A stretch of DNA of 64,000 nucleotides from an uncultured Candidatus Saccharibacteria bacterium (GTDB lineage: Bacteria; Patescibacteriota; Minisyncoccia; Phycocordibacterales; UBA9973), in assembly GCA_964591445.1 (NCBI GenBank), contig CAZQAW010000001.1, positions 83,010 to 147,009 on the forward strand, written 5' to 3'. Under the pieces are notes generated by a model. It made no database searches. It was not told the origin of the DNA and saw only the letters and a list, made by a program, of their open reading frames with translations. Positions within the stretch are counted from its first letter, which is position 1; every line of letters starts with the position of its first letter. The position numbers and the translations under genes were made by a program. Below are positions 47,136 to 64,000 of this stretch, piece after piece.

Positions 47136-47316
47136 GAGTTATAGTGTAGCATTTTAATAGATAATGATTTAGGTTTTCTGCGGTGTACTCGGGTATGGTA
47201 CCCGTGGGTGCAACCCTTGTAAGGACATTTTAGCATCTTTTTAAGAGTAAGACTAAGGTTTGTGGGTCGCTATCTGCAAATGCCAACAAATGCCAATTTT
47301 TTGATATAATGCAAAT

Positions 47317-48012
47317 ATGAAGATGACAGTCGGCGAATTAATAGCAAAAGAAATGAAAGAAGGAAAAAGCTCTGTGACCCTTCCAAATGGGGTTCTTCCG
47401 CCTGGGGCTAAAGAAGCATTTGAATCGCTTGCTAATATGAAGAAAAACATAGAAGAACCACTTAAAAAACAACTTGGTGCGATAAGATCTATAACTGATA
47501 TATATGGACCACAATTACAACGAATGGCTGAAGCTCAAAAGATAATTGAAGAAAATTACATCATTCCAGAAAGAAGAATTCAAAATGTTAGAATAGTTAA
47601 TTCTGAAGACATGATAGTCAGATCAAACAGAAAGGAAAATAATGTAGTTGTTGCATCATATCTGTTGCCTAAAAATGCTAATTGGGAAAGTTTAAGTGTT
47701 CAATTTTTAGATGGACACATTGTTAACGTCTCTTATTCAGGAATGAAATCACAAAAGTTTGATTTTAAAGATATGGGCTTTATGAACATGAAGACGAACA
47801 AGCCAGATTTAAAATGGGAATTACTCCTAGCAATTGCGGAAAATAGTGGAGCATTAACTAAGTCTAAATGGAACAGAAAATTTGGGCGAAACGTTAAATA
47901 TGAACTTAATGAGAGATTAAAGAAATTTTTTGGTATGGATTCAAATCCTATTTCTCACTACACTAAAAAAGGAGGATATCGAGCCACTTTTTCTCTCACA
48001 GAAGTTAAATAG
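47317..48012 (+). CDS. Hypothetical protein (first gene of AT-rich island)
   Basis: ORF; terminator hairpin at 48035-48072 (aaagggactttttcttgtttaagcaaaagtcccttta). Confidence 0.45.
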   Translation: MKMTVGELIAKEMKEGKSSVTLPNGVLPPGAKEAFESLANMKKNIEEPLKKQLGAIRSITDIYGPQLQRMAEAQKIIEENYIIPERRIQNVRIVNSEDMIVRSNRKENNVVVASYLLPKNANWESLSVQFLDGHIVNVSYSGMKSQKFDFKDMGFMNMKTNKPDLKWELLLAIAENSGALTKSKWNRKFGRNVKYELNERLKKFFGMDSNPISHYTKKGGYRATFSLTEVK

Positions 48013-48124
48013 TCATTGGGTATTAAATGACGATAAAGGGACTTTTTCTTGTTTAAGCAAAAGTCCCTTTATATTTGGGTTATTTTTAATATCTATTGAA
48101 TTGAAATAAAAAGAAATTGTCATT

Positions 48125-49483
48125 TTGTCATTCAATGACGAATATGTTTTAGAAGAGCAGCTAAGAACCTCTTCCGAAGAACATATTATGAAAAAGCAAA
48201 AGTTAGTATGGTCAATTACTTCTCGTAAAGTAAGTGATCTAACAAAAAACGGATACAATCCGAGAAAACTAGGTGAGGGCGAAAAAAGAGATTTAGAAAA
48301 GTCTATCAAGGAATTTGGAACAGTAGTTCCTGTTATCCTTAATATTGGTTCCAGAGCCAATATACTTATTGGCGGTGAACAGCGTGTAAAAGTCTACGCC
48401 GATCTCGGTATAGAAGATGTTGAGTGTATGATACCTTCTCGAGAGTTAACACTTGAAGAAGAAAAAGAACTCAATCTTAGACTTAATAAAAACACGGGAT
48501 CATGGGATGAAGAGCTTCTAAAAGAGTTCGAAATGGATATGCTTCTTAATGTTGGTTTTGGAGATGAAGAATTACAAAATCTTTTTGATGACGTGGATCT
48601 TGTAGAAGATGATTTTGATATTGAAAAAGCTATTAAAGAAACCATTACTCCAAAAGTAAAAATTGGCGAGATATGGGAGCTTGGAAAACACAGGTTACTT
48701 GTGGGCGACTCTACTGACATAACCTCTGTACAAAAGTTAATGGATGGTGACCTTGCAGACATAATCTACTGTGATCCCCCATATAACATTGGCTTGGACT
48801 ATTCAAAGGGTGTTGGTAATAAAGAAAAATATCAAGGTTCATATTCTGCTAAAGATGATTCAAAAAAAGATTCTGACTACATGGATTTTTTAGATAAGAG
48901 TATGGAAGTAACTAAAATCATAGCCAAGAAAGATACTCATTTCTTTTATTGGTCTGATTCTTCGTATCTCTGGATGACTCAGGAATTATACAAAAAACAC
49001 GACATTCAAAATAAGAGGGTTTGCCTCTGGTTAAAAAACAATCAAAATTGTACTCCTAAAATTGCCTTCAATAAAGTTTATGAACCGTGTGTCTATGGAA
49101 TCATTGGTAAGCCTTACATAAATCCCAATATGAATAATGCCAACGAAATTCTTAATCAAGAAATAACAACTGGCAATCAAGCTCACGACGAGATACTTGA
49201 AATGATAGATATTTGGATTGAAAAAAGAGATAGTGCTCAATCATATCAACATCCAACACAGAAACCAGTTACCTTAAACGAAAAACCAATTAAACGTTGT
49301 AGTGCCCCATTGCACATTGTATTCAGTGGCTTCGGCGGAAGTGGTAGTGATTTAATTGCTTGTGAAGAACTCGGTAGATGTTGGAGAGGGGTTGAAAAAG
49401 ATCTTATTTTCGCAACCATCATAATCGAAAGATGGGAAAAATTTACCAACCTTAAGGCAAAGAAAATCTATGAAAATAAATAA
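48125..49483 (+). CDS. ParB-like nuclease N-terminal domain fused to a beta-class N4/N6 DNA methyltransferase
   Basis: N-terminus SDLTKNGYNPRKL...LIGGEQRVKVYADLG (ParB/Srx fold). MTase motif IV IIYCDPPYN upstream of motif I region HPTQKPVTL...FSGFGGSGSD. Start likely at MKKQKLV (about 48188). Confidence 0.8.
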   Translation: MSFNDEYVLEEQLRTSSEEHIMKKQKLVWSITSRKVSDLTKNGYNPRKLGEGEKRDLEKSIKEFGTVVPVILNIGSRANILIGGEQRVKVYADLGIEDVECMIPSRELTLEEEKELNLRLNKNTGSWDEELLKEFEMDMLLNVGFGDEELQNLFDDVDLVEDDFDIEKAIKETITPKVKIGEIWELGKHRLLVGDSTDITSVQKLMDGDLADIIYCDPPYNIGLDYSKGVGNKEKYQGSYSAKDDSKKDSDYMDFLDKSMEVTKIIAKKDTHFFYWSDSSYLWMTQELYKKHDIQNKRVCLWLKNNQNCTPKIAFNKVYEPCVYGIIGKPYINPNMNNANEILNQEITTGNQAHDEILEMIDIWIEKRDSAQSYQHPTQKPVTLNEKPIKRCSAPLHIVFSGFGGSGSDLIACEELGRCWRGVEKDLIFATIIIERWEKFTNLKAKKIYENK

Positions 49484-50219
49484 AGGAGAAATCTATAAGG
49501 TTGGAAATCATGTGATCGGTTGTGGCGATTCTACAGATCAAGTGTTTGTGTCTAAAGTAATTGGAAAAAATAAAATACGGGCTATCATTGCCGATCCACC
49601 ATACGGCGTTGCGTATGTAGAAAATAAAAAAGGTTTTGCAAAGCTTGGAGTTAAAGATGAGAAAATAATTGCAGGCGATCATATTCAAAGTGAAGATGAC
49701 TATGAAGAATTCACTAGAAAATATCTGGGGGCAGTTGTTCCATATTTAGAAGAATATAATGCATGCTACATATTTAATGCTGATCCAATGTTTCCATCAC
49801 TTCGTATTGGCATGAAAAATGCAGGTTTTTATTATAGTCAGATGCTCATTTGGATTAAGAACCAACCTGTGATGAGTCGGAAAGATTACCTGTCGCAATA
49901 TGAACTCATAGCATATGGATGGTTTGGTAAACATAAAACAGAAAGATCTAAAGCTAAAAATGTCATCTATTATCCAAGACCAAACAAATCTAAACTTCAC
50001 CCAACTCAAAAACCAATTGGTTTGCTTCGTAAAATTATTCCTGACAATACATCCATAGGAGATATTATTTATGATCCATTTTTAGGAAGTGGTTCTACTG
50101 CTATAAGTGCTGAACATTTAGGTCGAAAATGTATTGGTATAGAAATAGATGAGAAGTATGTGTCTATTGTACTTCAAAGGCTAGAAAAATTGACTGGAGA
50201 AAAACCAGTTAAGATATAA
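49470..50219 (+). CDS. Beta-class N4/N6 DNA methyltransferase (orphan)
   Basis: IIADPPYGV (motif IV) ... HPTQKPIGLLRKII ... DPFLGSGSTAISAEHLGRKCIGIEID (motif I). Confidence 0.85.
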   Translation: MKINKGEIYKVGNHVIGCGDSTDQVFVSKVIGKNKIRAIIADPPYGVAYVENKKGFAKLGVKDEKIIAGDHIQSEDDYEEFTRKYLGAVVPYLEEYNACYIFNADPMFPSLRIGMKNAGFYYSQMLIWIKNQPVMSRKDYLSQYELIAYGWFGKHKTERSKAKNVIYYPRPNKSKLHPTQKPIGLLRKIIPDNTSIGDIIYDPFLGSGSTAISAEHLGRKCIGIEIDEKYVSIVLQRLEKLTGEKPVKI

Positions 50220-50223
50220 ATGT

Positions 50224-50598
50224 ATGAGCGAAGAAGACTTTATTAAGGATCCATACAAAAAACAAACATACGAGACGTATGCTCTTTGGAAGTCTCTTCC
50301 CTCATTTCTTAAGGGTCAACCGAGAGTAGCTCTTGAGAAATTTGGAATCAGTGAAGAAGTAATATTTGAACTTCTATCAATCAAGACTCAAGCTGAATTT
50401 TCAAAGGAATACAATATTGATGTTGGAACACTCACTGATTGGAATAAAAGATTAGAAAAGGATGGTTTAGTCAAAAATATCAATAGTTGGGCTAGAAAGT
50501 TAACTCCAAACGTTATCTTTGCTCTATACAAAAATATTACTAAACATGGCAGAGCTCACGAAGTAAGAGCTTGGTATGAATTAATTGAAAATAATTAA
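50224..50598 (+). CDS. Hypothetical protein
   Basis: ORF only. Confidence 0.4.
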   Translation: MSEEDFIKDPYKKQTYETYALWKSLPSFLKGQPRVALEKFGISEEVIFELLSIKTQAEFSKEYNIDVGTLTDWNKRLEKDGLVKNINSWARKLTPNVIFALYKNITKHGRAHEVRAWYELIENN

Positions 50599-50794
50599 TA
50601 TGGAAAACATTAATTTAGCTGAAATAAATACAATTCTCTCTGATACTCTTCGTAAGGTAGTAGGTAAAGAGATATCACTAAAGCAAGCGAGTATGATAGC
50701 GAAACTTGCCTATACACTTTCAAAGAATATTGTGAATGTGGAATTAAAAGACAGGGTCGAATTCCTTGAACAAGCACTTAAAGTAAGACGATAA
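50585..50794 (+). CDS. Hypothetical small protein
   Basis: ORF only. Confidence 0.3.
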   Translation: MKIINMENINLAEINTILSDTLRKVVGKEISLKQASMIAKLAYTLSKNIVNVELKDRVEFLEQALKVRR

Positions 50795-50797
50795 TAT

Positions 50798-52315
50798 ATG
50801 AAAAATCTAGCAAACATTTTAAGAAAATCTAACCTTTCTCCCAAAGAAAGAATTATTACTATCATTCAAAACGAAGTATATAAAGAAAAGAACGGTAAAG
50901 GAACTCTCACTGATTCAGAAATTTATGCTTTATCACAAGGATGGAGACCCAGAGATTCTCATGAGGCTAAAGAATACAATAGATATTTAGATGCTTCTAA
51001 GTTAGAAAGATCCATGAGATTAGATGCCCGAATGTTTGCGTACCGATCAGAGAATTTCTTATTACGAAGTAATATGTTGATTAATTACACAGCATACCTA
51101 GATGATACCTTAGAGGATTTTAAGAAAAATGACACTGTAAATAAATACATATCACAAGAAGAAATAATAAATTTCATTATAGAAAATACTTATCTCAAAT
51201 ATGAGAAATTAATTCATATAGTTACTTTCAATAATCTTCCCAAAAATATTAAAGATGACCTACTTCTTCTAGATGAATATGCATCTTATGATGGAAAGTA
51301 TTTAGAAGATGAGGTTTTTCTTTATGAGATATTTAAGAAATCAAAAAAATTAAGCGTGCAGGATAAAAATATTCTTATTGATTATATATTTTCTCGTATG
51401 TATAATGACGGTTTTAGAAAAATCAAAAATGGCTCTGAAAAAGATGGCTTTATGATGCTACAATCTTTTGCTGAACTTCCAATGCGGAATGTTTTTGAAA
51501 AATGGACAGAATATGCTCATATTAATCTTGATGAACAAAATATCAGTACTGAAAATTATTTACTTAATAAGTTTGAAGAATATGCAAAAAATAAAAATCA
51601 AACAATGGAGATGGTTATAAAAGAAACCTTATCTAAATGGATAGATGATGGGTTGTTTGTGTCTGAATATATGCCAATATTTTTTAGTAACAAAAAAGAT
51701 ACATGGAATGGAGATACAAGACTTACACACAAAGAAATTTTTATAAAATGGTATACAGAGTTACAAAAGACAAAAATATTTATTGATAAACTTGTTTCAA
51801 AAAATGATATAGAGGTTAAATTTATAGATAGAGAAATTTTTAGTGACACAAAAAAGATTAAAATAGTAACAGGAGAAAGTTTGTATAAATCTAAAATAGA
51901 TATTGATTTTGTGAAAGAATATAGAAATCAGATAACAGTGCTATCACCTGTAGTAGGATTATTTTTGTTTATTAAAAAGAATAATAATCCATTGAGTAGT
52001 TACAAAACACTTAAATCTTTTTGTGAAATGGCACAATTTTTTTCTGATATATTTGATGTTGATATGACAGATAAATACACAGAATCTTTGCATTCTTTTG
52101 AACAAGAATTATCTATGGTCAATCAAACTTTTAGTAAGTTACTTGATAAAGTAAGTGGACTTTTGTATACAAATGACAACATTAAATATGTCTTAGAAAT
52201 AGAAGAAGATAATTTGTCTTTTGATTTAAATAAAGAATCTCTTGAACCAACAGATGAAATGATCGCTGATTACAAGGGTGAGCTTAAAAAGATGGGTTTT
52301 ATAGTTGATATATAA
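50798..52315 (+). CDS. Hypothetical 505-aa protein (no recognisable motif)
   Basis: Long AT-rich ORF with coding-like composition. Confidence 0.45.
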   Translation: MKNLANILRKSNLSPKERIITIIQNEVYKEKNGKGTLTDSEIYALSQGWRPRDSHEAKEYNRYLDASKLERSMRLDARMFAYRSENFLLRSNMLINYTAYLDDTLEDFKKNDTVNKYISQEEIINFIIENTYLKYEKLIHIVTFNNLPKNIKDDLLLLDEYASYDGKYLEDEVFLYEIFKKSKKLSVQDKNILIDYIFSRMYNDGFRKIKNGSEKDGFMMLQSFAELPMRNVFEKWTEYAHINLDEQNISTENYLLNKFEEYAKNKNQTMEMVIKETLSKWIDDGLFVSEYMPIFFSNKKDTWNGDTRLTHKEIFIKWYTELQKTKIFIDKLVSKNDIEVKFIDREIFSDTKKIKIVTGESLYKSKIDIDFVKEYRNQITVLSPVVGLFLFIKKNNNPLSSYKTLKSFCEMAQFFSDIFDVDMTDKYTESLHSFEQELSMVNQTFSKLLDKVSGLLYTNDNIKYVLEIEEDNLSFDLNKESLEPTDEMIADYKGELKKMGFIVDI

Positions 52316-52445: not shown

Positions 52446-53363
52446 ATGACAACAGAAAAGTTGATCACGTCTGAACAAACAGACAAAGTCGCAGATCTTG
52501 GCAGAGAAGCTGTAAAGACTGCAGTTGGTAAAGTAAATCCAACAAGAGTAAACGTTCAAACTGGCATCATCAGCAACGGGCGTGAGTTTAAAAACAGAGT
52601 GGAAGAAGCTGTAAAAGCAATCATTCTGGAAATGACAACTCCCAACCAGTATGCTAACGAGGTGGTTAGCTCAAACTACACCTACCCCAGTGAGTATAAG
52701 ATGAAGCCGATTTCAGAACAGGTACAATCCATTGCTGAAAAGTTTGGACTTGATCCAACATCGGCATTGGAGTTTATCAAAACATTGCCTGCATTACCTG
52801 ACGGTGCCGAAGGATGGTTCGCCATTCCAAAAGTATCATCAGTTGCAAAAAAACATTTTTCTGCGATTACCGATTCTGCCGAACAGTATTGCGAAGCTAC
52901 AAAGTTGGTTCACAGCAAACTTGCTGAAAGCCGTAGCTTCTACAATTACCGTGAAGGTCAGATTACCACCGCACAGATTCGCCAACATCCCCGTACCATC
53001 AGTTTCCTCGAACAATTGGAATCTGAACAACAGGGTGACATTCTGATTCTCGCCGTTCAATACGGAATGAGACATCGTGGCAAATCAGTTCGTCGTGCAA
53101 GAGAAACGTTCTCAGGTAATGAATTCGGACTTGGAGCATTCGCTCTTGGCTGTATGGCATTGGTTCACCCCGATCGTTATGTTCGTTGGGAAGAACTTGA
53201 TACCGATTGTGCAGGTGACGAATTTGCTCCTGATGCTGCTGGCGTGTTCTCGAAGGCTCCGATCTTCTACTTCAGCGATGACGGGCTTGAGTTCGTCGCG
53301 AACGTTGTGTCCTTTGCCTACGTTTACTATGGTTCTGCCTCGGCGTTCGTTCCGCAGAATTGA
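52446..53363 (+). CDS. DGR target protein (variable protein); C-terminal 43 codons are the variable repeat
   Basis: VR occupies the last 131 nt before the stop; see VR/TR features. Confidence 0.8.
   Translation: MTTEKLITSEQTDKVADLGREAVKTAVGKVNPTRVNVQTGIISNGREFKNRVEEAVKAIILEMTTPNQYANEVVSSNYTYPSEYKMKPISEQVQSIAEKFGLDPTSALEFIKTLPALPDGAEGWFAIPKVSSVAKKHFSAITDSAEQYCEATKLVHSKLAESRSFYNYREGQITTAQIRQHPRTISFLEQLESEQQGDILILAVQYGMRHRGKSVRRARETFSGNEFGLGAFALGCMALVHPDRYVRWEELDTDCAGDEFAPDAAGVFSKAPIFYFSDDGLEFVANVVSFAYVYYGSASAFVPQN
53227..53357 (+). repeat. DGR variable repeat (VR)
   Basis: 131-bp ungapped alignment to TR: 116 identities and 15 mismatches, every mismatch at a TR adenine (VR carries C/T/G). The 3' 35 bp (ctatggttctgcctcggcgttcgttccg) is identical (IMH-like). 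Confidence 0.85.
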
Positions 53364-53731: not shown

Positions 53732-53862
53732 CTCCTGATGCTGATGGCGTGTTCTCGAAGGCTCCGATCTTCAACTTCAACGATGACAAGCTTAAGTTCG
53801 ACACGAACGATGTGTCCAATGCCAACGATAACTATGGTTCTGCCTCGGCGTTCGTTCCGAAG
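53732..53862 (+). repeat. DGR template repeat (TR), non-coding
   Basis: See VR. The ORF-track ORF 53707..53964 spanning it is judged spurious. Confidence 0.85.
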
Positions 53863-53908
53863 TATCCAATATACACAAAAGGTATCCTGTTAGGGATACC
53901 TTTTGCTT

Positions 53909-54256
53909 TTATCGTTCAACTGAACGAATCCATCCACCAAGCATTCTACCGATCTCGTCGGTAATATTTTGAAGCAGAGTGTACTTCTTTACATCAAGCG
54001 TTTTACTTTCTTTCATTAATCGAACAAAGAAACGAAAAATGTTTAATTTTACACTAGCTTTTTCAAGTAAAAGTAATTTGCGTTCTTTTGAAGAATAACT
54101 AGCTTCTAGGACATATTCGAGAATATCAATCATTACATTTTCAGATCGTTCATAGATTAAAAATCTTTCATGTTTTGGGACTAATGTTCTGTATTCATGA
54201 AATGTTTTATATAACTCGTGAATTTTTCTTAGAATTGGCACATCATTTTCATTCAT
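53909..54256 (-). CDS. avd: Avd-like accessory variability determinant (four-helix-bundle / 23S rRNA IVS-protein family), encoded antisense between TR and RT
   Basis: VPKHERFLIYERSENVMIDILEYVLEA ... ITDEIGRMLGGWIRSV resembles the family pattern FPKEE.Y.L.SQ.RR...SI..NIAEG ... EIGRML.GLI. Confidence 0.7.
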   Translation of the reverse strand: MNENDVPILRKIHELYKTFHEYRTLVPKHERFLIYERSENVMIDILEYVLEASYSSKERKLLLLEKASVKLNIFRFFVRLMKESKTLDVKKYTLLQNITDEIGRMLGGWIRSVER

Positions 54257-55312
54257 ATGCGTGTATTTATCAATTTATTTAATTCATTAATTCAGCCAGA
54301 ACACCTATTTTATTCATGGGAGGAATTTAAACGTGACAAAGGTTTAAAGGAAGATATCCTCTTATTTGAGAAAAATCTTGAAAGTGAGATATTTAAACTT
54401 CACCGAGAACTAAAAGGAGGAGTGTATAAACATAGTGGATATGAAAGTTTCTTTATTTCAGATCCAAAACGAAGACATATCCATAAAGCAACAGTAAGAG
54501 ACCGTGTAGTACATCATGCAATTATGCATACGTTGTATCCTCTCTACGACAAAACATTTATTAATAATTCATTTTCTTGTCGTGTTGGTAAAGGAACTCA
54601 TAAAGGTGTTCTTGCCCTTAGATCTATGATTGCCAAGGCGAGTAAAAATAATACTCAAACTGTTTACATTCTCAAGTGTGATGTTGAGAAATTTTTTGAT
54701 TCAGTTCATCATATTATTTTAATTGATATACTTAGAAAAAGAATTAGGGACAAAAAACTCATGGATTTACTGATAGAAGTAATTGAGAGTTTTATAAGTG
54801 ATCGTTCTACTTTATTTGATCATGTAGGTTTACCAATTGGAAATCTTACATCTCAACTTTTTGCAAACATATACATGGATAAATTTGACCAATATATGAA
54901 GCATGAATTGAAAGTAAAATACTATGCTCGTTACACAGATGACTTTGTTATTGTGAGTGAAAATAAAGAATACTTGTCTAACCTTAAATTAGATATTTCT
55001 AAATTCCTTAGTGAGTCACTAAGACTTACTATTCACCCAAAGAAAATTACCATTCGTAAGTATACTCATGGTATTGATTTTCTAGGACATGTTTCTTTTC
55101 CACATCATGTATTGATAAGAAAAAGAACCTTAGAAAGAGCTACGAGAAGAATTAATGAGAAGATTGTTTTGTATAAAGCAGGATCTCTTGAGAAAGAGAA
55201 ACTTGAAGCCACTTTATATTCATATCTTGGAGTTCTTTCTCACGCCAATGCTTATAGATTTTCTGAGAAACTGAAGAATGACTATTTTCTTTCGGTTAAT
55301 AATCCTGATTAA
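54257..55312 (+). CDS. DGR reverse transcriptase
   Basis: RT motifs: KRRHIHKATVRDRVVHHAI (motifs 1-2), CRVGKGTH (3), LPIGNLTSQLFANIY (DGR-specific IGxxxSQ motif 4), YARYTDDFVI (YxDD, motif 5). 351 aa. Confidence 0.9.
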   Translation: MRVFINLFNSLIQPEHLFYSWEEFKRDKGLKEDILLFEKNLESEIFKLHRELKGGVYKHSGYESFFISDPKRRHIHKATVRDRVVHHAIMHTLYPLYDKTFINNSFSCRVGKGTHKGVLALRSMIAKASKNNTQTVYILKCDVEKFFDSVHHIILIDILRKRIRDKKLMDLLIEVIESFISDRSTLFDHVGLPIGNLTSQLFANIYMDKFDQYMKHELKVKYYARYTDDFVIVSENKEYLSNLKLDISKFLSESLRLTIHPKKITIRKYTHGIDFLGHVSFPHHVLIRKRTLERATRRINEKIVLYKAGSLEKEKLEATLYSYLGVLSHANAYRFSEKLKNDYFLSVNNPD

Positions 55313-56840: not shown

Positions 56841-56864
56841 ATTTAAAAAATTAATTAATAATAT

Positions 56865-57578
56865 TTATTCATATAAAACAGTTAAAATGCCAGTACCAGA
56901 GAAATCACCTTGGTTTGGGGTATGGATTGTTATTACAGATTTTCCATATTTGTAATCTATGTTAGGATTAACATTTATTTTTTCCTCTGGAATTCGTATC
57001 TTTGGATAAATACCGCCAAAAATAATTTGGTCTGAGTTGAAATGCTGAGTGTAAACAAGTTTATCGTTCTTTGACATTGAATTACTGCCAGCATATAACT
57101 TTACATCGGCGGTAATTAACATTTTTTCTGTTGCGTCACTAGTTATAATATCTCCATTTTTATCTAAATATACTACTTCAAGAACAGGTCCATCATTTTC
57201 AACATCAGCATCCCAATTATCCTGTAGTCCTCCACTAACTCGTATAGCAGATAGTCCGTCTATCTGTAAAGTTTTATTAGATGATATTGGTGTTGTTGGG
57301 ACAACTTGAGTATTTGCGACCACTGGTACAGTTTTTGGAGTGGTAACTATTTTATTTTGAACCACTGTATCTTTTTGTATTACGTTAGTTTCTGCTACCG
57401 CAACAGGACTACTTACTGTTGATTCGACAATTGGAATCTCATCTTGTATTGGAATTTGAGCAATAGGTTCTTTTTTGTTTGAGAATTTAGAACCAACAAA
57501 TAGACCAATAACAAGTATTGCAACTATAACAACAATCTTACCTGTTATAGTTTCCATAAATTGTTTTACATCTTTCAT
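56865..57578 (-). CDS. Hypothetical membrane-anchored secreted protein
   Basis: N-terminal TM (IVVIVAILVIGLFVG); no domain recognised. Confidence 0.45.
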   Translation of the reverse strand: MKDVKQFMETITGKIVVIVAILVIGLFVGSKFSNKKEPIAQIPIQDEIPIVESTVSSPVAVAETNVIQKDTVVQNKIVTTPKTVPVVANTQVVPTTPISSNKTLQIDGLSAIRVSGGLQDNWDADVENDGPVLEVVYLDKNGDIITSDATEKMLITADVKLYAGSNSMSKNDKLVYTQHFNSDQIIFGGIYPKIRIPEEKINVNPNIDYKYGKSVITIHTPNQGDFSGTGILTVLYE

Positions 57579-57878: not shown

Positions 57879-59381
57879 CTATACGAGCATTTCTTTTTCT
57901 TTTGTAAAATTTATAGCAACTTGTCTATTTTTAACCTTTTCTTTTTCTCCTCTATTAAATCCGTCTTTTACAGCATTTATTATAAAACTCATTTTATAGT
58001 AAGATGTTATTGCAAAGAATATCAAAGTTATTGGTATGACAGAATGATAGGTTCCATGATCGTTTGATTTTGATATTTTTAAAAAATCTTCACATGGAAT
58101 TTCACACATAAAATCCTTAATCAACCCAACTCCTGGTCTCTCTATTTTTTTGTTGCTTTCACGGTCTAAATATTCGACTTTCCATCCATCATTTTCAAAT
58201 TTATTTTTAAGAGCATCAACACTAAGGAAAACCTTAATTTCAAGGCATCCCATCATCATACGAATGCAATCCCTTGGAGAGAAAGGCAAAACAGACTGAG
58301 GGGTTAAATTTCTAGGATACTGGTTATCTTCCATATAAAATGATTCAGTGCTAGATAAATCTATGACTTTACTAGTTTTATTTTTTAACCATTCTGGTCT
58401 ATTATTTCTTGCATTTTTCTTCTTCTGCATAATACTATCAGCATTTTTGTTAGAAATAGAAAGACTATCACTAATTTTATCCCAAGCAGTTATTTCTATA
58501 AAATATCCATCTTCTAATTCTTTTTGTTCAAAACCACTTTTATTGGCTTTTTTAATAATCTTTTTAATTTCACGAACATGAGCTTGTATTTTGATATCAG
58601 AGTTAACAATATCAGCTCTTTTAATAAAATCAGGGGTTCCATCTTCTTTAAATATTGGAATCTCAATGGAATTGTTTATTATTCCCATTTGAGCAATTAA
58701 ATGTCTTTGATCTTGACGGCTAACACCACTAGGTCCATGGTTTTTTATTTTTTCAAAAATATCTGATGTTTCAATTATTTTCTTGCCATCCTTTTTTAGT
58801 TCATAAAGTAAAATTTTTTCATCCTTAGTAATATGAGTTATATCGCCTATACGCAAACAATGAGTTAGATCGTTTATAATATTTATACCGTGTCTGGTAC
58901 TTGTAAATTTAGTAAGAATTTTTGCGTAAGAATTAGAGATAAAGCCAGAACCTTGATTTTCTGAAAGTAATCTAATGACTGGGCGGTTGAAATTTAAAAC
59001 ACGCCAAGCTATACCATCCATTATTGTGTGAAAAATTCTAATCCACTCTTGATAAATAATTATTTTATCTTCAAGATCTTTTTTTGTTTTTTCATCTAAA
59101 TCTAATTTTTTATATTCAATTTTAAATTTCTGTAAATCTTCTTGAAATTTTGGTAAATTCCTTAATGCTCCCATTTGTATTACGCCTATCCAAAAACCGT
59201 TCCTTTTTAAAAAAGGTATACGAGTTCTTTTAAGTAATTTTGTAAAATATCTCAAAAGTTGGGTGTAGTTTTTTGATGACACAAGAGAAATTCTTTTACT
59301 TATATAATCAAGAAATTTCTTTGCATCTTTTTCATTATCGGTAGTTTCCACAATCCAATTATAGCAAAAAGTTACCAACAT
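57879..59381 (-). CDS. Hypothetical 500-aa protein next to the serine recombinase
   Basis: Long ORF; no recognisable motif. Confidence 0.45.
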   Translation of the reverse strand: MLVTFCYNWIVETTDNEKDAKKFLDYISKRISLVSSKNYTQLLRYFTKLLKRTRIPFLKRNGFWIGVIQMGALRNLPKFQEDLQKFKIEYKKLDLDEKTKKDLEDKIIIYQEWIRIFHTIMDGIAWRVLNFNRPVIRLLSENQGSGFISNSYAKILTKFTSTRHGINIINDLTHCLRIGDITHITKDEKILLYELKKDGKKIIETSDIFEKIKNHGPSGVSRQDQRHLIAQMGIINNSIEIPIFKEDGTPDFIKRADIVNSDIKIQAHVREIKKIIKKANKSGFEQKELEDGYFIEITAWDKISDSLSISNKNADSIMQKKKNARNNRPEWLKNKTSKVIDLSSTESFYMEDNQYPRNLTPQSVLPFSPRDCIRMMMGCLEIKVFLSVDALKNKFENDGWKVEYLDRESNKKIERPGVGLIKDFMCEIPCEDFLKISKSNDHGTYHSVIPITLIFFAITSYYKMSFIINAVKDGFNRGEKEKVKNRQVAINFTKEKEMLV

Positions 59382-59437
59382 CTAGAACTCGGGACGCTCT
59401 GGACTCCTAGGGACGGTTGCGTCATTAATGTAGGTAT

Positions 59438-60766
59438 ATGAAAATAGATAACCCAAATCAAGATAAAGGTGTCGAGAAAATTAAGGTCGAACCAAAGAAG
59501 ATCAGGTACTGCCTTTATGCAAGAAAATCAACAGAATCAGAGGAAAGACAAGTCCTTTCCATAGACAGCCAAATCAGCGAGATGCTCCAATTAGCCGATC
59601 GTGAGGGGCTTGAGGTGGTCACCATGAAGCGTGAAAGCCATAGTGCTAAAGAGACTGGACAAAGACCTGTATTTAACGAAATTATTGAAGAAATCAAACA
59701 AGACAAATTTAATGCAATCCTCACTTGGGCACCCGATCGTATTTCAAGAAATGCGGGTGATCTTGGAAAAATAGTAGACTTAATGGATTCAGGTAAACTA
59801 CACATGATAAGAACCTTCGGACAAACATTTGGGAATAATCCTAATGAGAAATTTCTTCTTATGATTCTTGGTTCACAAGCAAAACTAGAAAATGATAACA
59901 GAGGAATAAATGTGAAGAGAGGGTTACGAACGAGAGTAGAGATGGGATTATGGCCTGGGATGGCACCACTTGGCTACTTAAATCAAAAGTTAATGGATAG
60001 GAAGTGTCAGATAGTAATTGATCCAGATAGAGCACCTATTATAAAGAAAATGTTTGAGAAAGTGGTATATGAACACTGGAGTGGAAGAAAGGTATACAAC
60101 TGGTTAAGATTTGATTTAAACTTCTATACTCGAGGAAACAAACCCCTGACACTCTCAGGGGTTTATCGTATCTTTAATATGCCAATCTATTATGGACCAT
60201 TTGAATATCCTAGAAATTCTGATAACTGGTATCAAGGAAGTCATACACCAATAATTACTCAAGAGTTATTTGAAAAAGCTCAGGCACAATTAAAGAGAGA
60301 TAGAATTGTAAGAGAAAATAGAGAGTTTACCTTCACTAAATTATTTACATGTGGAATGTGTAGTTCAGGGATATCCGCTCAAGAAAAATATAAAGAACTT
60401 AAAGATGGAACAACTGCTAAATATGTCTACTACTCTTGTTCAAAATCTAGAGATAGGAATTGTAAAAATAAATACATACGAGAAGAAGAATTGATAGATG
60501 AATTATTTAAAGTAATTGATAAGGTAAGTATTAACGAGCTAGGGATGAGAATAAAACTTGAAGAAGAAATCAAACGATTCAATCGACTTCAAAGATTAGC
60601 AACAAAAGGCACACCAAAATACTCAATAAATGAGGACGATGTAAACACTAGAGAATATGCCAAGTATGTACTTAGAGAAGGCACACCGCTCGAAAAAAGA
60701 GAATTGCTTGGACATTTAAGGAGTAGGTTGATACTGAATGATAAAAAAATCACATTAGTAACTTAA
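59438..60766 (+). CDS. Large serine recombinase (resolvase catalytic domain + recombinase domain + zinc ribbon); putative integrase of the AT-rich island
   Basis: YCLYARKSTESEERQVLSIDSQ (catalytic Ser region), TWAPDRISRN; C-terminal CGMCSSG...YYSCSKSRDRNC zinc ribbon. Confidence 0.85.
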   Translation: MKIDNPNQDKGVEKIKVEPKKIRYCLYARKSTESEERQVLSIDSQISEMLQLADREGLEVVTMKRESHSAKETGQRPVFNEIIEEIKQDKFNAILTWAPDRISRNAGDLGKIVDLMDSGKLHMIRTFGQTFGNNPNEKFLLMILGSQAKLENDNRGINVKRGLRTRVEMGLWPGMAPLGYLNQKLMDRKCQIVIDPDRAPIIKKMFEKVVYEHWSGRKVYNWLRFDLNFYTRGNKPLTLSGVYRIFNMPIYYGPFEYPRNSDNWYQGSHTPIITQELFEKAQAQLKRDRIVRENREFTFTKLFTCGMCSSGISAQEKYKELKDGTTAKYVYYSCSKSRDRNCKNKYIREEELIDELFKVIDKVSINELGMRIKLEEEIKRFNRLQRLATKGTPKYSINEDDVNTREYAKYVLREGTPLEKRELLGHLRSRLILNDKKITLVT

Positions 60767-60812
60767 TACTATAATATTTCAAAAAATCATTGAAAATGGT
60801 AATATTTAATAT

Positions 60813-61493
60813 ATGAAAAAAGTAATTATCTTAGGGGCTAGCGATGGACTTGGTAAGGCAATTGCCAGCTTGTGTATTAATGAAAAGATAGAAGTAATTA
60901 ATATAAGTAGAACACCTTGTGACATATCAGGTGTTACTAATTTTGCTTGTGACTTATCAATAGAAAAAGACATCGATAACGCTGTTAATACTATAAAAGA
61001 GAAACATCGTGATTTTGATGCAATTATAAATTGTGTCGCCATTGTGGCAATGGAAAAGATAAATGAAATTACATATCCTAAATTTGAAAAAGCATTTAAA
61101 ATAAACACGATCGCACCTTTATACTTTTTATCCTCCTTATTTGATAACATTGTAAAAAATGAAGCTGATATATTGAATATTGGCACAACAGCAGATTTAA
61201 AAGCTGGATTTGTTGATCAACTAGCATATACCTCAACTAAATACGGATTAAGGGGTGGTTCATATAACCTTGGGTTAGAATTAGCAAAAACAAAAAGCAG
61301 AATGATATATGTCCACTGTGGTGGGATGAATACACAAATGCATGAAAAAGATTACGGAAAGAAAATAGAAGACCCAGAAGAATGGATGAACCCTAGTGAT
61401 GTAGCTGGTATAGTTTTGTATTTATTAAAGCTACCAAAACAAGTAGAAATAACAGAAATTACTATCAGTCGCAAGAAAAGAAGATTAATGTAA
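60813..61493 (+). CDS. Short-chain dehydrogenase/reductase (SDR)
   Basis: KKVIILGASDGLGKAIA (TGxxxGxG) and YTSTKYGLRG (YxxxK). Confidence 0.75.
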   Translation: MKKVIILGASDGLGKAIASLCINEKIEVINISRTPCDISGVTNFACDLSIEKDIDNAVNTIKEKHRDFDAIINCVAIVAMEKINEITYPKFEKAFKINTIAPLYFLSSLFDNIVKNEADILNIGTTADLKAGFVDQLAYTSTKYGLRGGSYNLGLELAKTKSRMIYVHCGGMNTQMHEKDYGKKIEDPEEWMNPSDVAGIVLYLLKLPKQVEITEITISRKKRRLM

Positions 61494-61508
61494 AAAATAT
61501 AAAATTTT

Positions 61509-61907
61509 ATGATAGAAAATATTTATCCAGAAGATTGGCAACAAACAAGAGGTTTCTATTCACCAGCAAAAAAGATTGATATGGGGAGTTTTTATATGAT
61601 CTATGTATCTGGTCAACAGGTTGGTAAGAATGAAAACAACGAAGCTATAACAGATGATATAGAAGAACAAACAGAGCTTGTTTTTCAGTCAATTGAAAGT
61701 ATATTAAAACCTGCTGGTGCCTCAATGAAAGATGTTGTTAAAGCTCAAATATTTTTGACTGATATAAATGACTTTCCAAAAGTTTCTGCTATTAGAGATA
61801 AATGGTTTGCGGAGAGTAAGCCAGTTAGCACTTTACTTGAAGTTAATGCAATGACTCGCAAAGGTGCAAAGATTGAAATTGAAGTGACTGCAATTATCAA
61901 AAAATAA
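61509..61907 (+). CDS. RidA/YjgF/TdcF-family protein
   Basis: 132 aa; GFYSPAKKIDMGSFYMIYVSGQ...IEVTAI pattern. Confidence 0.6.
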   Translation: MIENIYPEDWQQTRGFYSPAKKIDMGSFYMIYVSGQQVGKNENNEAITDDIEEQTELVFQSIESILKPAGASMKDVVKAQIFLTDINDFPKVSAIRDKWFAESKPVSTLLEVNAMTRKGAKIEIEVTAIIKK

Positions 61908-61911
61908 TATT

Positions 61912-62514
61912 ATGAAATACGAATTTATAGCAGTTGATATACAAAATGATTTTGCGACAGAGGGTGGTAAATTTTATACTTATAAACCCTCAATTACTTT
62001 TCTTAAAGAAAATATTTTTCCTTATCTAAAAGAAAAGAATATAAAAGTAAATGAAATTGTTTCTGATTATAGACAACCTAGACCTGGTGATTACGGTGAG
62101 GGGTGTATCCCTGGAGAGTGGAGCTATGAATCAGTAATGCCTAAAGATTTACAGAAATCATTATGGGTAAAATGCATGAATTCTCCAATATGGATAAGAA
62201 AAAACGGAGGAAATCCTAAAAAGAAAGCTGGTTTACCTTATGCAGACTCTAAAAAGTTTGGTAAATGGATAAAGAAGAATATAGGTAATCGAGAAGATAA
62301 AACACCAGTTATTTTTGGTCTAACTATTGATTGTTGTGTATTGTCTACTGTTCAAGAATTTAGATGGAGAGGTTTTAATCCCATTGTTATTAGAGAAGCA
62401 GTTGATACATCAAATGGAATAATAGAAGATAGAGATATTATATTAGAAAAAACGGCACTTCGTTGGTGGGGTAAAACTATGAATTGGGAAGATTTTAAAA
62501 AACTTATAGATTAA
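61912..62514 (+). CDS. Isochorismatase-family cysteine hydrolase
   Basis: EFIAVDIQNDF and VIFGLTIDCCVLST. Confidence 0.65.
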   Translation: MKYEFIAVDIQNDFATEGGKFYTYKPSITFLKENIFPYLKEKNIKVNEIVSDYRQPRPGDYGEGCIPGEWSYESVMPKDLQKSLWVKCMNSPIWIRKNGGNPKKKAGLPYADSKKFGKWIKKNIGNREDKTPVIFGLTIDCCVLSTVQEFRWRGFNPIVIREAVDTSNGIIEDRDIILEKTALRWWGKTMNWEDFKKLID

Positions 62515-62518
62515 ATTT

Positions 62519-62911
62519 ATGGAAAATTATAGAGGTGTAATAATTGAAGAAAGCCTAGAAAATAAAGAAGTGCTTAAAAAGGTGCAGATTTTGGAAACCG
62601 AGATAAGTGTTGTTACAGAAAAACATAAGACTCCTTGGATCAAACAATGGACATTGCATACTGTTTTAATTCCAGAAAACGAAGCTGAGAGCATAGCTAA
62701 GGAGCTGAGCGTTTCTTTGGATACAGAGCATAATTGGTATGCTGATTATAGAAGTAAAACTCATCATTATATTATTTTTAGGGATAAAGTTTTTTATATA
62801 AACAGAAAGAGTATAGAAGAATATAATAAAGCAAAAGAATACGGTCTTTCTTTGGGTATTCCGTCATATCAAGTAGATTTTCATCCAGATATTAAGGATT
62901 GGGAAAAATAA
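62519..62911 (+). CDS. Hypothetical protein
   Basis: ORF only. Confidence 0.35.
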   Translation: MENYRGVIIEESLENKEVLKKVQILETEISVVTEKHKTPWIKQWTLHTVLIPENEAESIAKELSVSLDTEHNWYADYRSKTHHYIIFRDKVFYINRKSIEEYNKAKEYGLSLGIPSYQVDFHPDIKDWEK

Positions 62912-63399
62912 ATAATATGATTAATCAAAAACAACTTTGTGAATTTTTAGTAAAAGCCAAAAAGGCAGGATACGCCAGTGGAAATAATGCTAACAAACTC
63001 AAAGAAAAGAATAGATCCAAAACGATAACTTTTAAAAGTGGTAATTGGTTGTATTACGACAACTACTTTGGCGGTGAACCGTATGGTGGAGAAGAAATAG
63101 TTTTCTTTAAAAATCAACCAGTTTATATGATGGTTTACTATGGTTCTGTCGATAAATCAGTTAAGGATTTTAAGGAAGTATATAAATGCTTACAAGAAGC
63201 TCTTACTCTCATACTTAAAGATAAACCTTTTCGTGGCCCTAAATTTTATAAGAATGGAAACTATGCGTATAGAAATTGGTTTAATGGAAAAATAGATAAT
63301 TTTTCTGGTATAGAGAAAATATATTTCGGAAAAAAGAAAATTTACGAAGCCAGATATGTCGGTGGCTTAGTTGATCAAAGAAAAGAAAAAAATGGATAA
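62899..63399 (+). CDS. Hypothetical protein
   Basis: ORF only. Confidence 0.35.
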   Translation: MGKINNMINQKQLCEFLVKAKKAGYASGNNANKLKEKNRSKTITFKSGNWLYYDNYFGGEPYGGEEIVFFKNQPVYMMVYYGSVDKSVKDFKEVYKCLQEALTLILKDKPFRGPKFYKNGNYAYRNWFNGKIDNFSGIEKIYFGKKKIYEARYVGGLVDQRKEKNG

Positions 63400-63985
63400 A
63401 AAAACTATAGATACGTATAACCAAATGGCAAAAGAATATGATGATGAAACCATTGATTTTTGGGATAGATTTCCACGAACATTTTTTGATGAATTTATTA
63501 ATTCTGTTAATGGAAAAGTAATAGACATAGGAAGCGGACCTGGTCGTGATGGAATGGTACTTAAAGAAAAAGGATTGGAAGTTGTTTGTTTAGATGCTTC
63601 AGAAGCGATGGTACAACTTTCTAAACAAAAAGGATTGGAATCTATTGTTGGGGATCTATTAAATCTTCCTTTCCCTAATGAGACCTTTAGTGGAGCTTGG
63701 GCATATACATCCTTACTGCATGTTTCAAAGAAAGATGTAGATAAAGCTTTTTCTGAAATAAATAGAATTTTAAATAAAGATGGTATTCTGGGTCTAGGAA
63801 TGATAGAAGGAGAAACTGAAGAATATAGAGAAAGTTCTGGAGTAAATATGCCTCGTCTCTTTAGTTTTTACACAAAAGAAGAATTAGAAACATTATTAAA
63901 CAAACATGGCTTTAAAGTTATATACTTTGAAACTTTTAAACCAGGGAGTAAAAATTACTTAAATTTTATTGCAAAGAAAATATAA
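63371..63985 (+). CDS. Class I SAM-dependent methyltransferase
   Basis: KVIDIGSGPGRDG (motif I), VVCLDASEAM, LLHVSKKD. Confidence 0.75.
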   Translation: MIKEKKKMDKKTIDTYNQMAKEYDDETIDFWDRFPRTFFDEFINSVNGKVIDIGSGPGRDGMVLKEKGLEVVCLDASEAMVQLSKQKGLESIVGDLLNLPFPNETFSGAWAYTSLLHVSKKDVDKAFSEINRILNKDGILGLGMIEGETEEYRESSGVNMPRLFSFYTKEELETLLNKHGFKVIYFETFKPGSKNYLNFIAKKI

Positions 63986-64000
63986 AAAATATGCAAACCA

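Follow-up and report, generated by a model that had tools for sequence, protein, structure and literature searches.

A probable tRNA-Ser-associated serine-recombinase island carrying a complete DGR in a Paceibacteria-class patescibacterium

The right-hand part of the 64,000-nucleotide stretch of DNA analysed here (the 'window') is AT-rich, and the question is what this block is and how it came to lie there. The initial annotation read it as an integrated phage-like or integrative element carrying a DGR. This reading holds in a refined form, that of a large-serine-recombinase integrative island and not a prophage. It is very likely that the chromosome of a Paceibacteria-class patescibacterium carries here, from window position 47,179 to at least 64,000 (at least 16.8 kb), an integrative genomic island that is a member of a widespread family of serine-recombinase elements linked to tRNA-Ser. 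No published description of this family was found in the literature searched.

The left 47 kb of the window carries host genes (SMC, ThrRS, GyrB, PilB), and the nearest named relatives of its GyrB, at 77-79%, belong to Paceibacterota, Nomurabacteria and Minisyncoccia. Mean GC falls from 44.2% at 1-44 kb to 32.6% between 47,179 and the end of the window (1-kb windows: 0.442 +/- 0.029 compared to 0.326 +/- 0.038, Mann-Whitney p = 9e-9). The GC drop noted earlier at about 47.2 kb, and its persistence to the window end, are thus real, but it is not the sharp single step described: the fall is stepwise, with 37-40% already reached at 44-47 kb. GC remains low up to 64,000 because the island extends past the window to a right end predicted to be a tRNA-Ser gene; the contigs available past that point were short Logan contigs only, extending 39 nt beyond 64,000. 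Island genes have a GC3 of 0.15-0.29, compared to 0.50 for the flanking TM189 gene, and within the AT-rich island the DGR target gene stands out by its high GC (45.6%). The tetranucleotide profile, proposed in the initial annotation as a check, marks the island as foreign to its host: usage correlates at 0.91 between the two host halves, and at 0.14-0.26 between island and host. The AT-rich block is horizontally acquired, with a composition foreign to its ultra-small Patescibacteria host. Its source may have been a low-GC Paceibacteria donor. L018, a sister element in a 32%-GC Paceibacterota MAG, correlates in tetranucleotide usage at 0.76-0.86 with the two parts of the island.

A large GC step within a metagenome-derived contig could also be produced by an assembly or binning chimera of two organisms, or could mark a native AT-rich chromosomal region. 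Both are scarcely credible here. A 2.1-kb Logan contig from SRR12762304, independently assembled, crosses the host/island junction, which rules out an assembly chimera at this boundary; moreover, the breakpoint is, to the base, the end of a mobile element seen in other genomes. The same genes in the same context in related genomes had been named as evidence against an island; the comparison favours an island, since L018 holds the same element in a different chromosomal context.

The left end was placed by aligning the window with L018 and a second sister element, L020. The three sequences are identical rightwards from TGCGGTG and unrelated to the left, giving a breakpoint at 47,179. The attL site (47179..47209, plus strand) consists of the shared core TGCGG (47179-47183) followed by an element-side (P') arm with ACTCGGGTA and the palindrome CGGGTA-TGG-TACCCG. 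This palindrome (gggtatggtacccgtggg, 47191-47208) is located within the element, rightward of the breakpoint, and is conserved in L018; its earlier placement at the left junction was therefore correct, as part of the left attachment site. The direct repeat TGCCAA-CAAA-TGCCAA (47281..47296, plus strand), also proposed as a junction repeat, is instead an internal motif, placed in the leader of p231, the first gene of the element. It is 100% conserved upstream of the p231 homologues of L018 and a further locus, L025, although the L025 homologue itself is only 37% identical, and it could possibly be an operator. At the L020 junction a canonical P arm, TGCGG and the P' arm form an intact, attP-like site. 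L018 has the same (A)TGCGG at its right end, directly against a tRNA-Ser 3' end, and in more than 30 family loci a conserved P-arm consensus abuts the tRNA. In the window/L018 subgroup, attL and the tRNA end have a common core of no more than 5-6 nt, so that the crossover position is one that we infer rather than prove. No long flanking repeat was found at the island boundary. A lack of boundary repeats had been held to speak against an island, an argument that is invalid for serine integrases, which leave few shared bases (here TGCGG). Synteny with the closest host strains ends at window position 46,556, before the junction; the contigs of these strains stop 620 nt left of attL, and no empty site (attB) was seen in close relatives.

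The large serine recombinase (59438..60766, plus strand) has Resolvase, Recombinase and Zn_ribbon_recom domains and matches the phrog_95 integrase (2.7e-64). It is 99% identical in L018, and its catalytic motif Y-A-R-K-S31 is invariant across the recombinase alignment. Species-representative genomes, nearly all of them Patescibacteria MAGs, yielded more than 580 relatives. A convergent tRNA-Ser lies downstream of the recombinase in about 60 of 80 loci (62), at a distance of only 114-130 nt in 12 of these tRNA-Ser-linked loci. In L072, L085 and L092 the far side of the element bears repeats (17-21 nt) that match the 3' end of tRNA-Ser, and L084 and L087 have similar repeats spanning the P-arm/tRNA junction.

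In the model that we favour, the large serine recombinase would insert the element, in circular form, into a tRNA-Ser gene at its 3' end, with a crossover in or beside the shared bases TGCGG. Insertion would yield an attL made of host flank, TGCGG and the palindromic P' arm (47,179-47,209), and an attR in which the P arm of the element (ACTCGGGTC...CGATACTAAATTGTC) abuts the tRNA. The attR of this genome would have to sit to the right of the window, at the tRNA-Ser predicted there. The recombinase presumably catalysed this insertion itself, and the island may still be able to excise; no recombination directionality factor or excision factor was identified.

The order of Resolvase, Recombinase and Zn ribbon, and the catalytic serine, are those of other large-serine-recombinase elements and prophages (SPbeta SprA/YokA, TP901-1, phiC31, Bxb1), which likewise have short att sites with inverted distal motifs and few shared core bases. 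By sequence the window recombinase is related to YokA, the TP901-1 integrase and CcrB, the first two (SPbeta YokA, TP901-1 integrase) being its PDB relatives. The family differs from these systems in its target, the tRNA-Ser 3' end, and in its Patescibacteria hosts, and the window recombinase is internal to the element, with cargo to its left and right. As in SCCmec (CcrAB), a conserved recombinase is combined with highly variable cargo beside a conserved host gene. Targeting of tRNA 3' ends is typical of tyrosine integrases and unusual for serine integrases. Islander/TIGER-type tRNA islands share with the family integration at a tRNA 3' end, foreign composition and accessory cargo, as well as the displaced tRNA 3' end repeat at the far boundary, seen here in L072, L085 and L092. 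They differ in using a tyrosine recombinase and in having a long duplicated tRNA segment, compared to 5-6 shared nt in the window/L018 subgroup.

L018 and the window share about 90% nucleotide identity over window positions 47179-52319, 57590-57870 and 59370-61521. The family has a backbone made up of a ParB-MTase fusion, a second MTase, a small HTH protein and a TerL-like terminase (in this subgroup p505), followed by the LOOT sRNA, a conserved leader, the recombinase and the P arm; cargo is exchanged in slots between these conserved pieces. The first element gene, p231 (47317..48012, plus strand; 93% identical in L018), had no match in Pfam, PHROG, NCBIfam or PDB. It is followed by a ParB_N-DNA methyltransferase fusion, an orphan beta-class N6/N4 MTase (48125..49483, plus strand; N6_N4_Mtase 1.5e-17, ParB_N 3.7e-5, phrog_498 9e-86), whose homologue lies on the same strand upstream of the recombinase in 22 loci. 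A second orphan beta-class DNA methyltransferase (49470..50219, plus strand; Pfam N6_N4_Mtase 3e-31, phrog_498 1.5e-59) is present in 21 loci; its class was read directly from DPPY preceding FxGxG. The earlier identification of these two enzymes is borne out, as is the remark that no cognate restriction enzyme is seen: no restriction-endonuclease model matched any island ORF. The MTases may protect the element DNA against restriction. Next come HTH124 (50224..50598, plus strand), a small helix-turn-helix protein with weak HTH_28 and MarR matches that is 99% identical in L018 and found in 6 loci, and p505 (50798..52315, plus strand), an all-alpha protein (AF2 model, pLDDT 90.8). The 73 p505 homologues all lack Pfam domains; those with a name are few, are annotated as hypothetical proteins and come mostly from Patescibacteria MAGs.

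These left-hand genes bear on a possible phage connection. HTH124 sits at the position of the TerS-like HTH of other family members, and p505 in the slot where others encode a TerL-like terminase. This exact correspondence with the TerS/TerL slot is what one would expect if the island were a PICI-like phage satellite using helper capsids through the TerS/TerL module of the family, its own terminase having been lost or replaced. A compact integrative element with a terminase and without virion genes is a satellite hallmark, PICI/cf-PICI satellites being likewise small; some family members do encode TerS-like and TerL-like proteins with no virion genes, and the TerL-like gene lies directly upstream of the recombinase in L008, L013, L015, L068 and L096. 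However, a TerL-like gene is found in only about 12 of 80 loci, and no gene for replication, a primase, capsid remodelling or helper interference could be recognised; the window copy has no terminase, and no helper phage is known. As candidates, HTH124 proved unrelated to the TerS-like HTH of L008, and p505 had no similarity to TerL, no fold similarity to terminases and no fold neighbours in PDB or BFVD. We regard the satellite reading as unlikely. Less likely still, and by a good measure improbable, is a prophage, complete or decayed, with structural genes beyond the window or lost. Several relatives are classed as viral by IMG/VR, family members combine the ParB-MTase, a TerS-like HTH and a TerL-like gene, and the intact attP-like site of L020 is on a 42-kb contig that also bears a TerL-like gene. 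Against this, a PHROGs search, as the initial annotation had advised, gave matches limited to the two MTases and the integrase, and the island ORFs of the window include no TerL, TerS-like, capsid, portal, tail or lysis gene. L085, an element delimited by tRNA-Ser repeats, measures only 12 kb and gave no capsid, portal or tail match among 10 ORFs compared with Pfam, and a second bounded element, L092, spans merely 3.5 kb.

An integrative island thus remains the preferred reading, and its extent to the right of the recombinase has to be considered. The recombinase gene is followed by a short-chain dehydrogenase (SDR) gene (60813..61493, plus strand; adh_short 9.6e-25), which is 93% identical in L018 and is the last gene common to both. 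A third slot (C), 3' of the recombinase and SDR genes, here holds small-molecule enzymes: RidA, isochorismatase-like, a 130-aa ORF, DUF5680 and a SAM methyltransferase (61509..64000, plus strand; Pfam), which run to the window end with a GC of 30-33% and island-like tetranucleotide usage. Homology to L018 breaks off at about 61,521, at the start of the gene after the SDR (13 nt into it), as it might if the locus were a flexible one with two or more separately acquired islands, for example an element at 47.2-61.5 kb and an insertion from 61.5 to beyond 64 kb. Several loci contain degenerate tRNA-Ser fragments or additional copies of the P arm, which suggests repeated insertion, and host strains are variable left of attL. 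Such a composite is nevertheless doubtful. The canonical P arm and tRNA-Ser of L018 are found 4.5 kb past the recombinase, and analogous enzyme cargo lies in the interval, so that such cargo is internal to the element there; the matching slot contains other small-molecule enzymes and then tRNA-Ser(TGA). Moreover, the 47.2-60.8 kb and 60.8-64 kb parts of the window island are alike in tetranucleotide usage (r = 0.67). The recombinase gene is accordingly not at the element end, the low-GC enzyme genes to its right being cargo before the predicted tRNA-Ser.

Upstream of the recombinase, a conserved non-coding block (59370..59430, plus strand; AGTTACCAAC...GGGACGCTCTGGACTC...TTGCGTCATTAAT) is kept in the window, L006, L007, L013 and L015 despite differing upstream genes, and in about 20 further loci. 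The adjacent slot (B) is occupied by the 500-aa protein p500 (57879..59381, minus strand), variable cargo that had no match in Pfam, PHROGs, PADLOC, NCBIfam or PDB; an unrelated 920-aa ORF takes its place in L018. Beyond it lies a LOOT small RNA (Rfam RF03000; 57648..57768, minus strand), detected at full length with 73.6 bits (gathering score 46.4); the segment that holds it is 93.6% conserved in L018. The RNA occurs in 22 of 85 family loci, nearly always antisense to the recombinase. We know of no biological context assigned earlier to the LOOT motif, which here is a recurrent component of recombinase/tRNA-Ser elements. It is reportedly a candidate sRNA of Weinberg et al. 2017.

Slot A comprises in this copy a complete CPR-type DGR, a membrane-anchored nuclease and two membrane proteins. 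The domain matches uphold the DGR, nuclease, recombinase and small-molecule enzyme genes of the initial annotation. The staphylococcal-nuclease-like protein (55365..56456, minus strand; Pfam SNase 7.9e-25, PADLOC 'SNc+LTD' 2.6e-44) has N-terminal hydrophobic helices evident in the translation, and its homologues belong to the cargo of L042 and L068 as well. The translated ORFs show one of the two small membrane proteins (56472..57578, minus strand) to be a 122-aa Zn-ribbon/TM protein and the other a 237-aa TM protein; they have at most a weak Pmp3 match and are both missing from L018.

The DGR, a retroelement that diversifies a protein, is complete, with an A-specific mutagenesis footprint and the avd-inverted architecture typical of CPR bacteria. 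The target gene (52446..53363, plus strand) has its VR at the C-terminus (53227-53360) and is flanked by a perfect sigma-70 consensus (52329-52356) and a terminator hairpin (53426-53457). Its homologues, about 300 aa long, number more than 1800; among the matches listed none has a Pfam domain, and the named ones are from Paceibacteria/Patescibacteria. The template repeat (TR; 53732..53865, plus strand) is followed by a hairpin (53876-53905). Over 134 nt, TR and VR differ at 16 positions, 15 of them TR adenines and the sixteenth at the repeat edge; all 16 fall at codon positions 1 or 2. The accessory gene avd (53909..54256, minus strand; Pfam bAvd 1.3e-15, NCBIfam DivGenRetAVD 8.8e-22) is inverted, head-to-head with zero spacer to the reverse transcriptase gene (54257..55312, plus strand; Pfam RVT_1 9.7e-25), whose translation contains the DGR-type IGNLTSQ motif and a YTDD box. 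We take this avd-inverted arrangement to be architecture B3 of Wu et al. 2018. The order target-VR, TR, avd, RT, with avd inverted relative to RT, is also that of CPR/Patescibacteria DGRs (clade 2, Roux et al. 2021), which share the adenine-specific mutagenesis; CPR DGR targets are, like the one in the window, proteins of about 300 aa without recognisable domains (PMC8144416). Wu et al. 2018 reported 'essentially no information' on phage association of CPR/Patescibacteria DGRs. Such DGRs have been described as 'cellular-encoded', whereas the one in the window is cargo of a mobile island: it occupies a variable slot, being absent from L018 and carried by about 10 of 80 related loci, with the avd(-)/RT(+) pair in the same arrangement in about 10 family loci.

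GC content averages 0.442 ± 0.029 over the first 44 kb of the window and 0.326 ± 0.038 from 47,179 to 64,000 (1-kb windows; Mann-Whitney p = 9e-9). For the deviation of tetranucleotide usage, the correlation is r = 0.91 when one half of the host part is set against the other, only 0.14 to 0.26 between island and host, and 0.67 between the island parts at 47.2 to 60.8 kb and 60.8 to 64 kb. GC3 is 0.15 to 0.29 in island genes, compared to 0.50 in the adjoining TM189 gene on the host side. The shift announced by the initial annotation is therefore real by all three measures, but it is stepwise rather than sharp, since the 44 to 47 kb segment is already down to 37 to 40% GC; within the island, the target gene of the diversity-generating retroelement (DGR) is a GC-rich exception (45.6%). 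A 2.1-kb Logan contig from an independent assembly (SRR12762304) crosses the host/island junction, which is therefore not an assembly chimera. The left 47 kb, which encodes SMC, ThrRS, GyrB, PilB and a UvrD-like helicase, is chromosomal. The closest named relatives of GyrB, 77 to 79% identical, belong to Candidatus Paceibacterota, Nomurabacteria and Minisyncoccia, which points to a Paceibacteria-class patescibacterium of about 44% GC as the host. Near the junction, the host gene at 45560-46465 had no match in genome contigs, and nothing better than a 33% match in metagenome contigs.

If the low-GC block were an ordinary chromosomal region, relatives should carry the same genes in the same context. 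Such is not the case. The closest sister element, L018, from Ca. Paceibacterota SO_2016_GW1_104 (32% GC throughout), is about 90% identical at the nucleotide level to window positions 47179-52319, 57590-57870 and 59370-61521, and its flanks are unrelated; more widely, members of the family are found beside tRNA-Ser genes of the four standard anticodons. The composition of the island matches that of low-GC Paceibacteria such as the L018 host, and the recombinases of the two elements are 99% identical, compared to only 77 to 79% between the host GyrB and its nearest named relatives, which suggests a recent horizontal transfer.

The left end could be placed by a three-way alignment of the window with L018 and a second sister element, L020: the three are identical rightwards from TGCGGTG (47,179) and unrelated leftwards, which places attL at this position. 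At the other end of L018, the same (A)TGCGG, preceded by P-arm motifs, abuts a tRNA-Ser(TGA) gene, 4.5 kb past the recombinase, with small-molecule enzyme genes in between. In L020, the sequence left of the breakpoint is a canonical P arm, giving an intact attP-like junction made of P arm, TGCGG and P' arm (L020 1072-1130). The palindrome noticed earlier at the left junction (47191-47208) turns out, from the alignment and the L020 junction, to be the P' arm of the attachment site; compared to the P-arm copy, its distal C(A/T)CGGGT(A/C) motif stands in inverted orientation, as would be expected in the attP of a serine integrase. The L020 junction lies on a 42-kb MAG contig with TerL-like and TerS-like genes, and L020 could represent a larger member of the family, in free or tandem form.

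In 62 of the recombinase loci fetched for comparison, a convergent tRNA-Ser gene was found downstream of the recombinase, at a distance of only 114 to 130 nt in 12 of them. From recombinase to tRNA, the spacer contains a terminator, (C)ACTCGGGTC, about 27 nt, and ACTCGGGTC-N2-4-CGATA(C/A)TAAATTGTC-N2; in more than 30 loci, the last motif directly abuts the tRNA 3' end (plus strand GGCGGAG). Counted alone, ACTCGGG shows no enrichment in the window (5 found, 3 expected), and it is from position and conservation across genomes, not from counts, that this motif derives its significance. At the far side of the element, a 17 to 21-nt repeat of the tRNA 3' end was found in three loci (L072, L085 and L092), and a similar repeat spanning the P-arm/tRNA junction in two others (L084 and L087); such repeats are far beyond chance. 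The tRNA anticodons were GCT, TGA, GGA and CGA, with some called 'ACT': ARAGORN placed a tRNA-Ser with this unusual anticodon next to the recombinase in L031, L050, L059, L061, L073 and L090, sometimes beside a normal tRNA-Ser(GCT). These ACT genes could be element-modified or decayed copies of the target.

Sequence comparison thus yields candidates for four sites: attP (L020), attL (window and L018), attR (L018 and many other loci), and an attB predicted at the tRNA-Ser 3' end. The attR, known from L018 and more than 30 relatives, lies beyond the window here: the window contains no tRNA-Ser gene, and the right end of the element would therefore be past position 64,000. This would account for the low GC up to the window end and for the island-like character of the 'small-molecule' genes. 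On this side, the best Logan contig continues beyond position 64,000 for 39 nt. No long repeats, direct or inverted, were found on either side of the island, as expected for a serine integrase, and a degenerate pattern search of IMG/VR returned no excised attP junction.

The nearest strains of the host (loci L099-L103; sister-strain samples 3300045398, 3300045395 and SRR30862795) are 95% identical at the nucleotide level over 44475-46556. Synteny is lost at 46,556, that is, 620 nt left of attL and before the host-like TM189 gene; beyond this point, the sister strains have an unrelated 169-aa membrane gene, then a similar AGGTT...GCGGTGT junction. In these strains, GCGGTGT... is preceded by ...GGTTATAA, and the window host flank left of attL reads ...AGGTTTTC. 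Four of the five sister contigs reach the 46,556 region, and all four stop no more than about 700 nt away, three of them within about 100 nt of the junction. Such contig ends suggest a variable or repeated locus, which may be a hotspot with older remnants. No empty attachment site was recovered from a close relative.

Domain and profile searches and translations confirmed all gene calls of the initial annotation. The island encodes a fusion of ParB_N with an N6/N4 methyltransferase (MTase), a second, beta-class MTase, a small HTH protein, four proteins without assigned function (231, 505, 237 and 500 aa), the DGR, a TM-anchored SNase (PADLOC 'SNc+LTD' model, 2.6e-44), a large serine recombinase, and genes for SDR, RidA, an isochorismatase-like protein, DUF5680 and a SAM-MTase. 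The nuclease and membrane proteins are cargo. A restriction-modification system would require a cognate endonuclease adjoining the MTases; PADLOC and Pfam gave MTase models only over the island ORFs, in agreement with the earlier reading of these MTases as orphans. A REase_II match (E = 0.007) in a 130-aa ORF at 62519-62911 was marginal and not credible.

Two phage-related identities were also considered. A tailed prophage would bring capsid, portal, terminase, tail and lysis genes: PHROGs matches in the island were confined to the MTases and the integrase, and no virion, terminase (TerL included) or lysis genes were found among the island genes in the window. A PICI-like satellite would bring packaging or capsid-redirecting genes of its own and depend on a helper; the window copy has neither TerS-like nor TerL-like genes, and is unlikely to be one. 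The 505-aa protein, p505, is not terminase-like; it is all-alpha in a confident model (pLDDT 90.8) and has no relative by sequence or fold in PDB or BFVD.

Window and L018 differ at three slots, each bounded by conserved sequence. The first (52320-57589) contains the DGR, the SNase and two membrane proteins in the window, and a single 328-aa membrane protein in L018. The second (57871-59369) contains the 500-aa protein in the window and a 920-aa ORF in L018. The third starts at 61,522, 13 nt into the gene after the SDR, a gene that begins with MIEN in both elements. Related DGR cassettes, of about 72 to 73% nucleotide identity, occupy the same relative position in L048 and L061. Elsewhere in the family, the cargo slots of L006, L007, L008 and L013 contain type I, II or III restriction-modification systems, OLD-like ATPases and TIR-like proteins, so that the family also carries defence genes.

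The DGR comprises a reverse transcriptase (RT) gene (54257-55312; RVT_1, 9.7e-25 in Pfam), whose product shows the DGR-type IGNLTSQ ([I/L/V]GxxxSQ) and YTDD motifs; an avd gene (53909-54256), on the opposite strand; and a 134-nt repeat pair. Residues 261-305, the C-terminus of a 305-aa target ORF, are encoded by the variable repeat (VR, 53227-53360), and the template repeat (TR) lies at 53732-53865. VR and TR differ at 16 positions, all at codon position 1 or 2; 15 of them fall on TR adenines, of which there are 31, and the sixteenth is at the repeat edge. The last 25 nt or so, GC-rich, are the same in both copies, and hairpins are found 3' of the VR (53426-53457) and of the TR (53876-53905). 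This A-specific footprint is that of a DGR, from which we read that the target C-terminus would be diversified by A-specific mutagenic retrohoming. Avd scored 58.2 bits with Pfam bAvd (cutoff 40) and 77.4 bits with NCBIfam DivGenRetAVD, slightly under its cutoff of 80. With a DGR-type RT, an adenine-specific repeat pair at an ORF 3' end and Avd, together with the recombinase, attL and the different context in L018, the early view of an integrative element carrying a DGR is upheld.

The target belongs to a family that counts over 1800 members, about 300 aa in length; no Pfam domain is assigned to the listed members or to the target itself, and those with names come from Paceibacteria or other Patescibacteria. 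The confidence of its AF2 model (pLDDT 67.6, less than 50 in the VR) is too low for a meaningful fold search, such as would recognise a C-type-lectin or Ig fold around the VR, and the model gave no PDB match. A perfect 12/12 sigma-70 consensus with extended TG, the best promoter match of the island, lies just upstream of the target gene (52329-52356). A scan limited to the non-A positions of the TR found one VR only in the window; it ruled out as a second VR an exact 16-nt match between VR positions 53322-53337 and the DUF5680 gene (63133-63148), which is probably due to chance. Between VR and TR lies a weak partial match (53562-53624, plus strand) to RT-7, an Rfam RNA motif that occurs close to reverse transcriptase genes; its 27 bits are far under the gathering score of 116.8.

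The avd and RT genes are head-to-head with no spacer, their start codons being back-to-back (cat then atg, 54254-54259), so that each promoter must sit within the other gene. The same inverted pair was seen in about 10 related loci, and is presumably the arrangement named B3. [quoted passage not shown] 2018). CPR DGRs have been called 'cellular-encoded' (Roux 2021, PMC8144416), and essentially no information on their association with phages was available (Wu 2018).

The recombinase (59438..60766, plus strand; 442 aa) has a Resolvase catalytic domain with the nucleophilic Ser, a Recombinase domain and a Zn-ribbon; among solved structures, its relatives are SPbeta YokA and the TP901-1 integrase, and S31 of the YARKS motif is unchanged throughout alignment A5. 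More than 580 relatives were found in one-genome-per-species contigs, nearly all of them Patescibacteria MAGs, and others, 61 to 86% identical, on IMG/VR contigs. Over the 88 loci fetched, ParB-MTase was present upstream of the recombinase on the same strand in 22, the second MTase in 21, a TerS-like HTH in about 25, a TerL-like terminase (frequently directly upstream of the recombinase) in about 12, a DGR in about 10, and SNase in 2. In a subgroup made of L018, L019, L025, L052 and L056, the HTH124 protein and p505 stand in place of the TerS-like HTH and TerL. A LOOT RNA (Rfam RF03000) is present at 57648-57768 on the minus strand of the window, full length (model positions 1-121 of 121) and well scored (73.6 bits, gathering threshold 46.4), and has a terminator-like hairpin of its own. 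Of 85 recombinase loci, 22 contain this RNA, nearly always on the strand antisense to the recombinase gene, and this orphan motif thereby gains a mobile-element context.

Genomic islands mobilised by a large serine recombinase, here one with a CPR-type DGR as cargo, are of a kind already known. Targeting of tRNA genes is a typical habit of tyrosine integrases. What looks unusual is the dedication of a serine-recombinase family to tRNA-Ser genes, its very wide spread in Patescibacteria, and its recurrent link to DGRs, LOOT RNA and a phage-derived packaging/MTase module. Family-wide linkage and the anatomy of the att sites suggest that a circular element entered the 3' end of a tRNA-Ser gene through the action of the recombinase; the orphan MTases, by analogy with the known role of ParB-MTase fusions of phages and plasmids, would probably protect its DNA from host restriction after transfer. 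Our broadest proposal is tentative, and we consider it somewhat more doubtful than probable: these mosaic mobile elements would form a family not described before and spread across the Patescibacteria, combining a tRNA-Ser-targeting large serine recombinase, a phage-derived ParB-MTase/TerS/TerL module and LOOT. Clade-2 DGRs, supposedly 'cellular', would owe much of their movement from one CPR lineage to another to this family, as would restriction-modification systems and other cargo, and the elements might travel as phage satellites. Full-text literature searches, of partial coverage and thus not proof of novelty, found no description of the family.

In Patescibacteria (CPR), genomes are tiny and mobile elements have seldom been recognised; the DGRs, abundant there, have been regarded as chromosomal, and to our knowledge no route for their spread is known. 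The present locus, with its relatives, would offer a concrete vehicle for them: an island with a serine recombinase and with att sites placed to the base at tRNA-Ser, present in hundreds of species, whose exchangeable slots are repeatedly occupied by DGRs, restriction-modification systems and nucleases. The predicted attP/attB pairs make this recombinase family a candidate genetic tool for organisms that now have none.

Two conserved non-coding stretches deserve mention. A block of about 60 nt (59370-59430) lies immediately upstream of the recombinase ATG, and its GGGACGCTCTGGACTC core is invariant where the recombinases themselves are only 65 to 86% identical. Its use as an att site was rejected, since integration does not split the block: it was found complete in all contexts, that of the integrated window copy included. 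An operator or a 5' UTR element is the more probable role. Two of six IMG/VR matches to its 16-mer, in unrelated high-GC phages, were attributed to chance. The second stretch, the direct repeat TGCCAA-CAAA-TGCCAA (47281-47296) upstream of the 231-aa protein gene, is 100% conserved in L018 and L025, even where this protein is only 37% identical. It resembles the sequence (A/T)T(T/G)(A/G)CCAAC found on the left edge of the first stretch, a likeness suggesting that the two may share a common operator.
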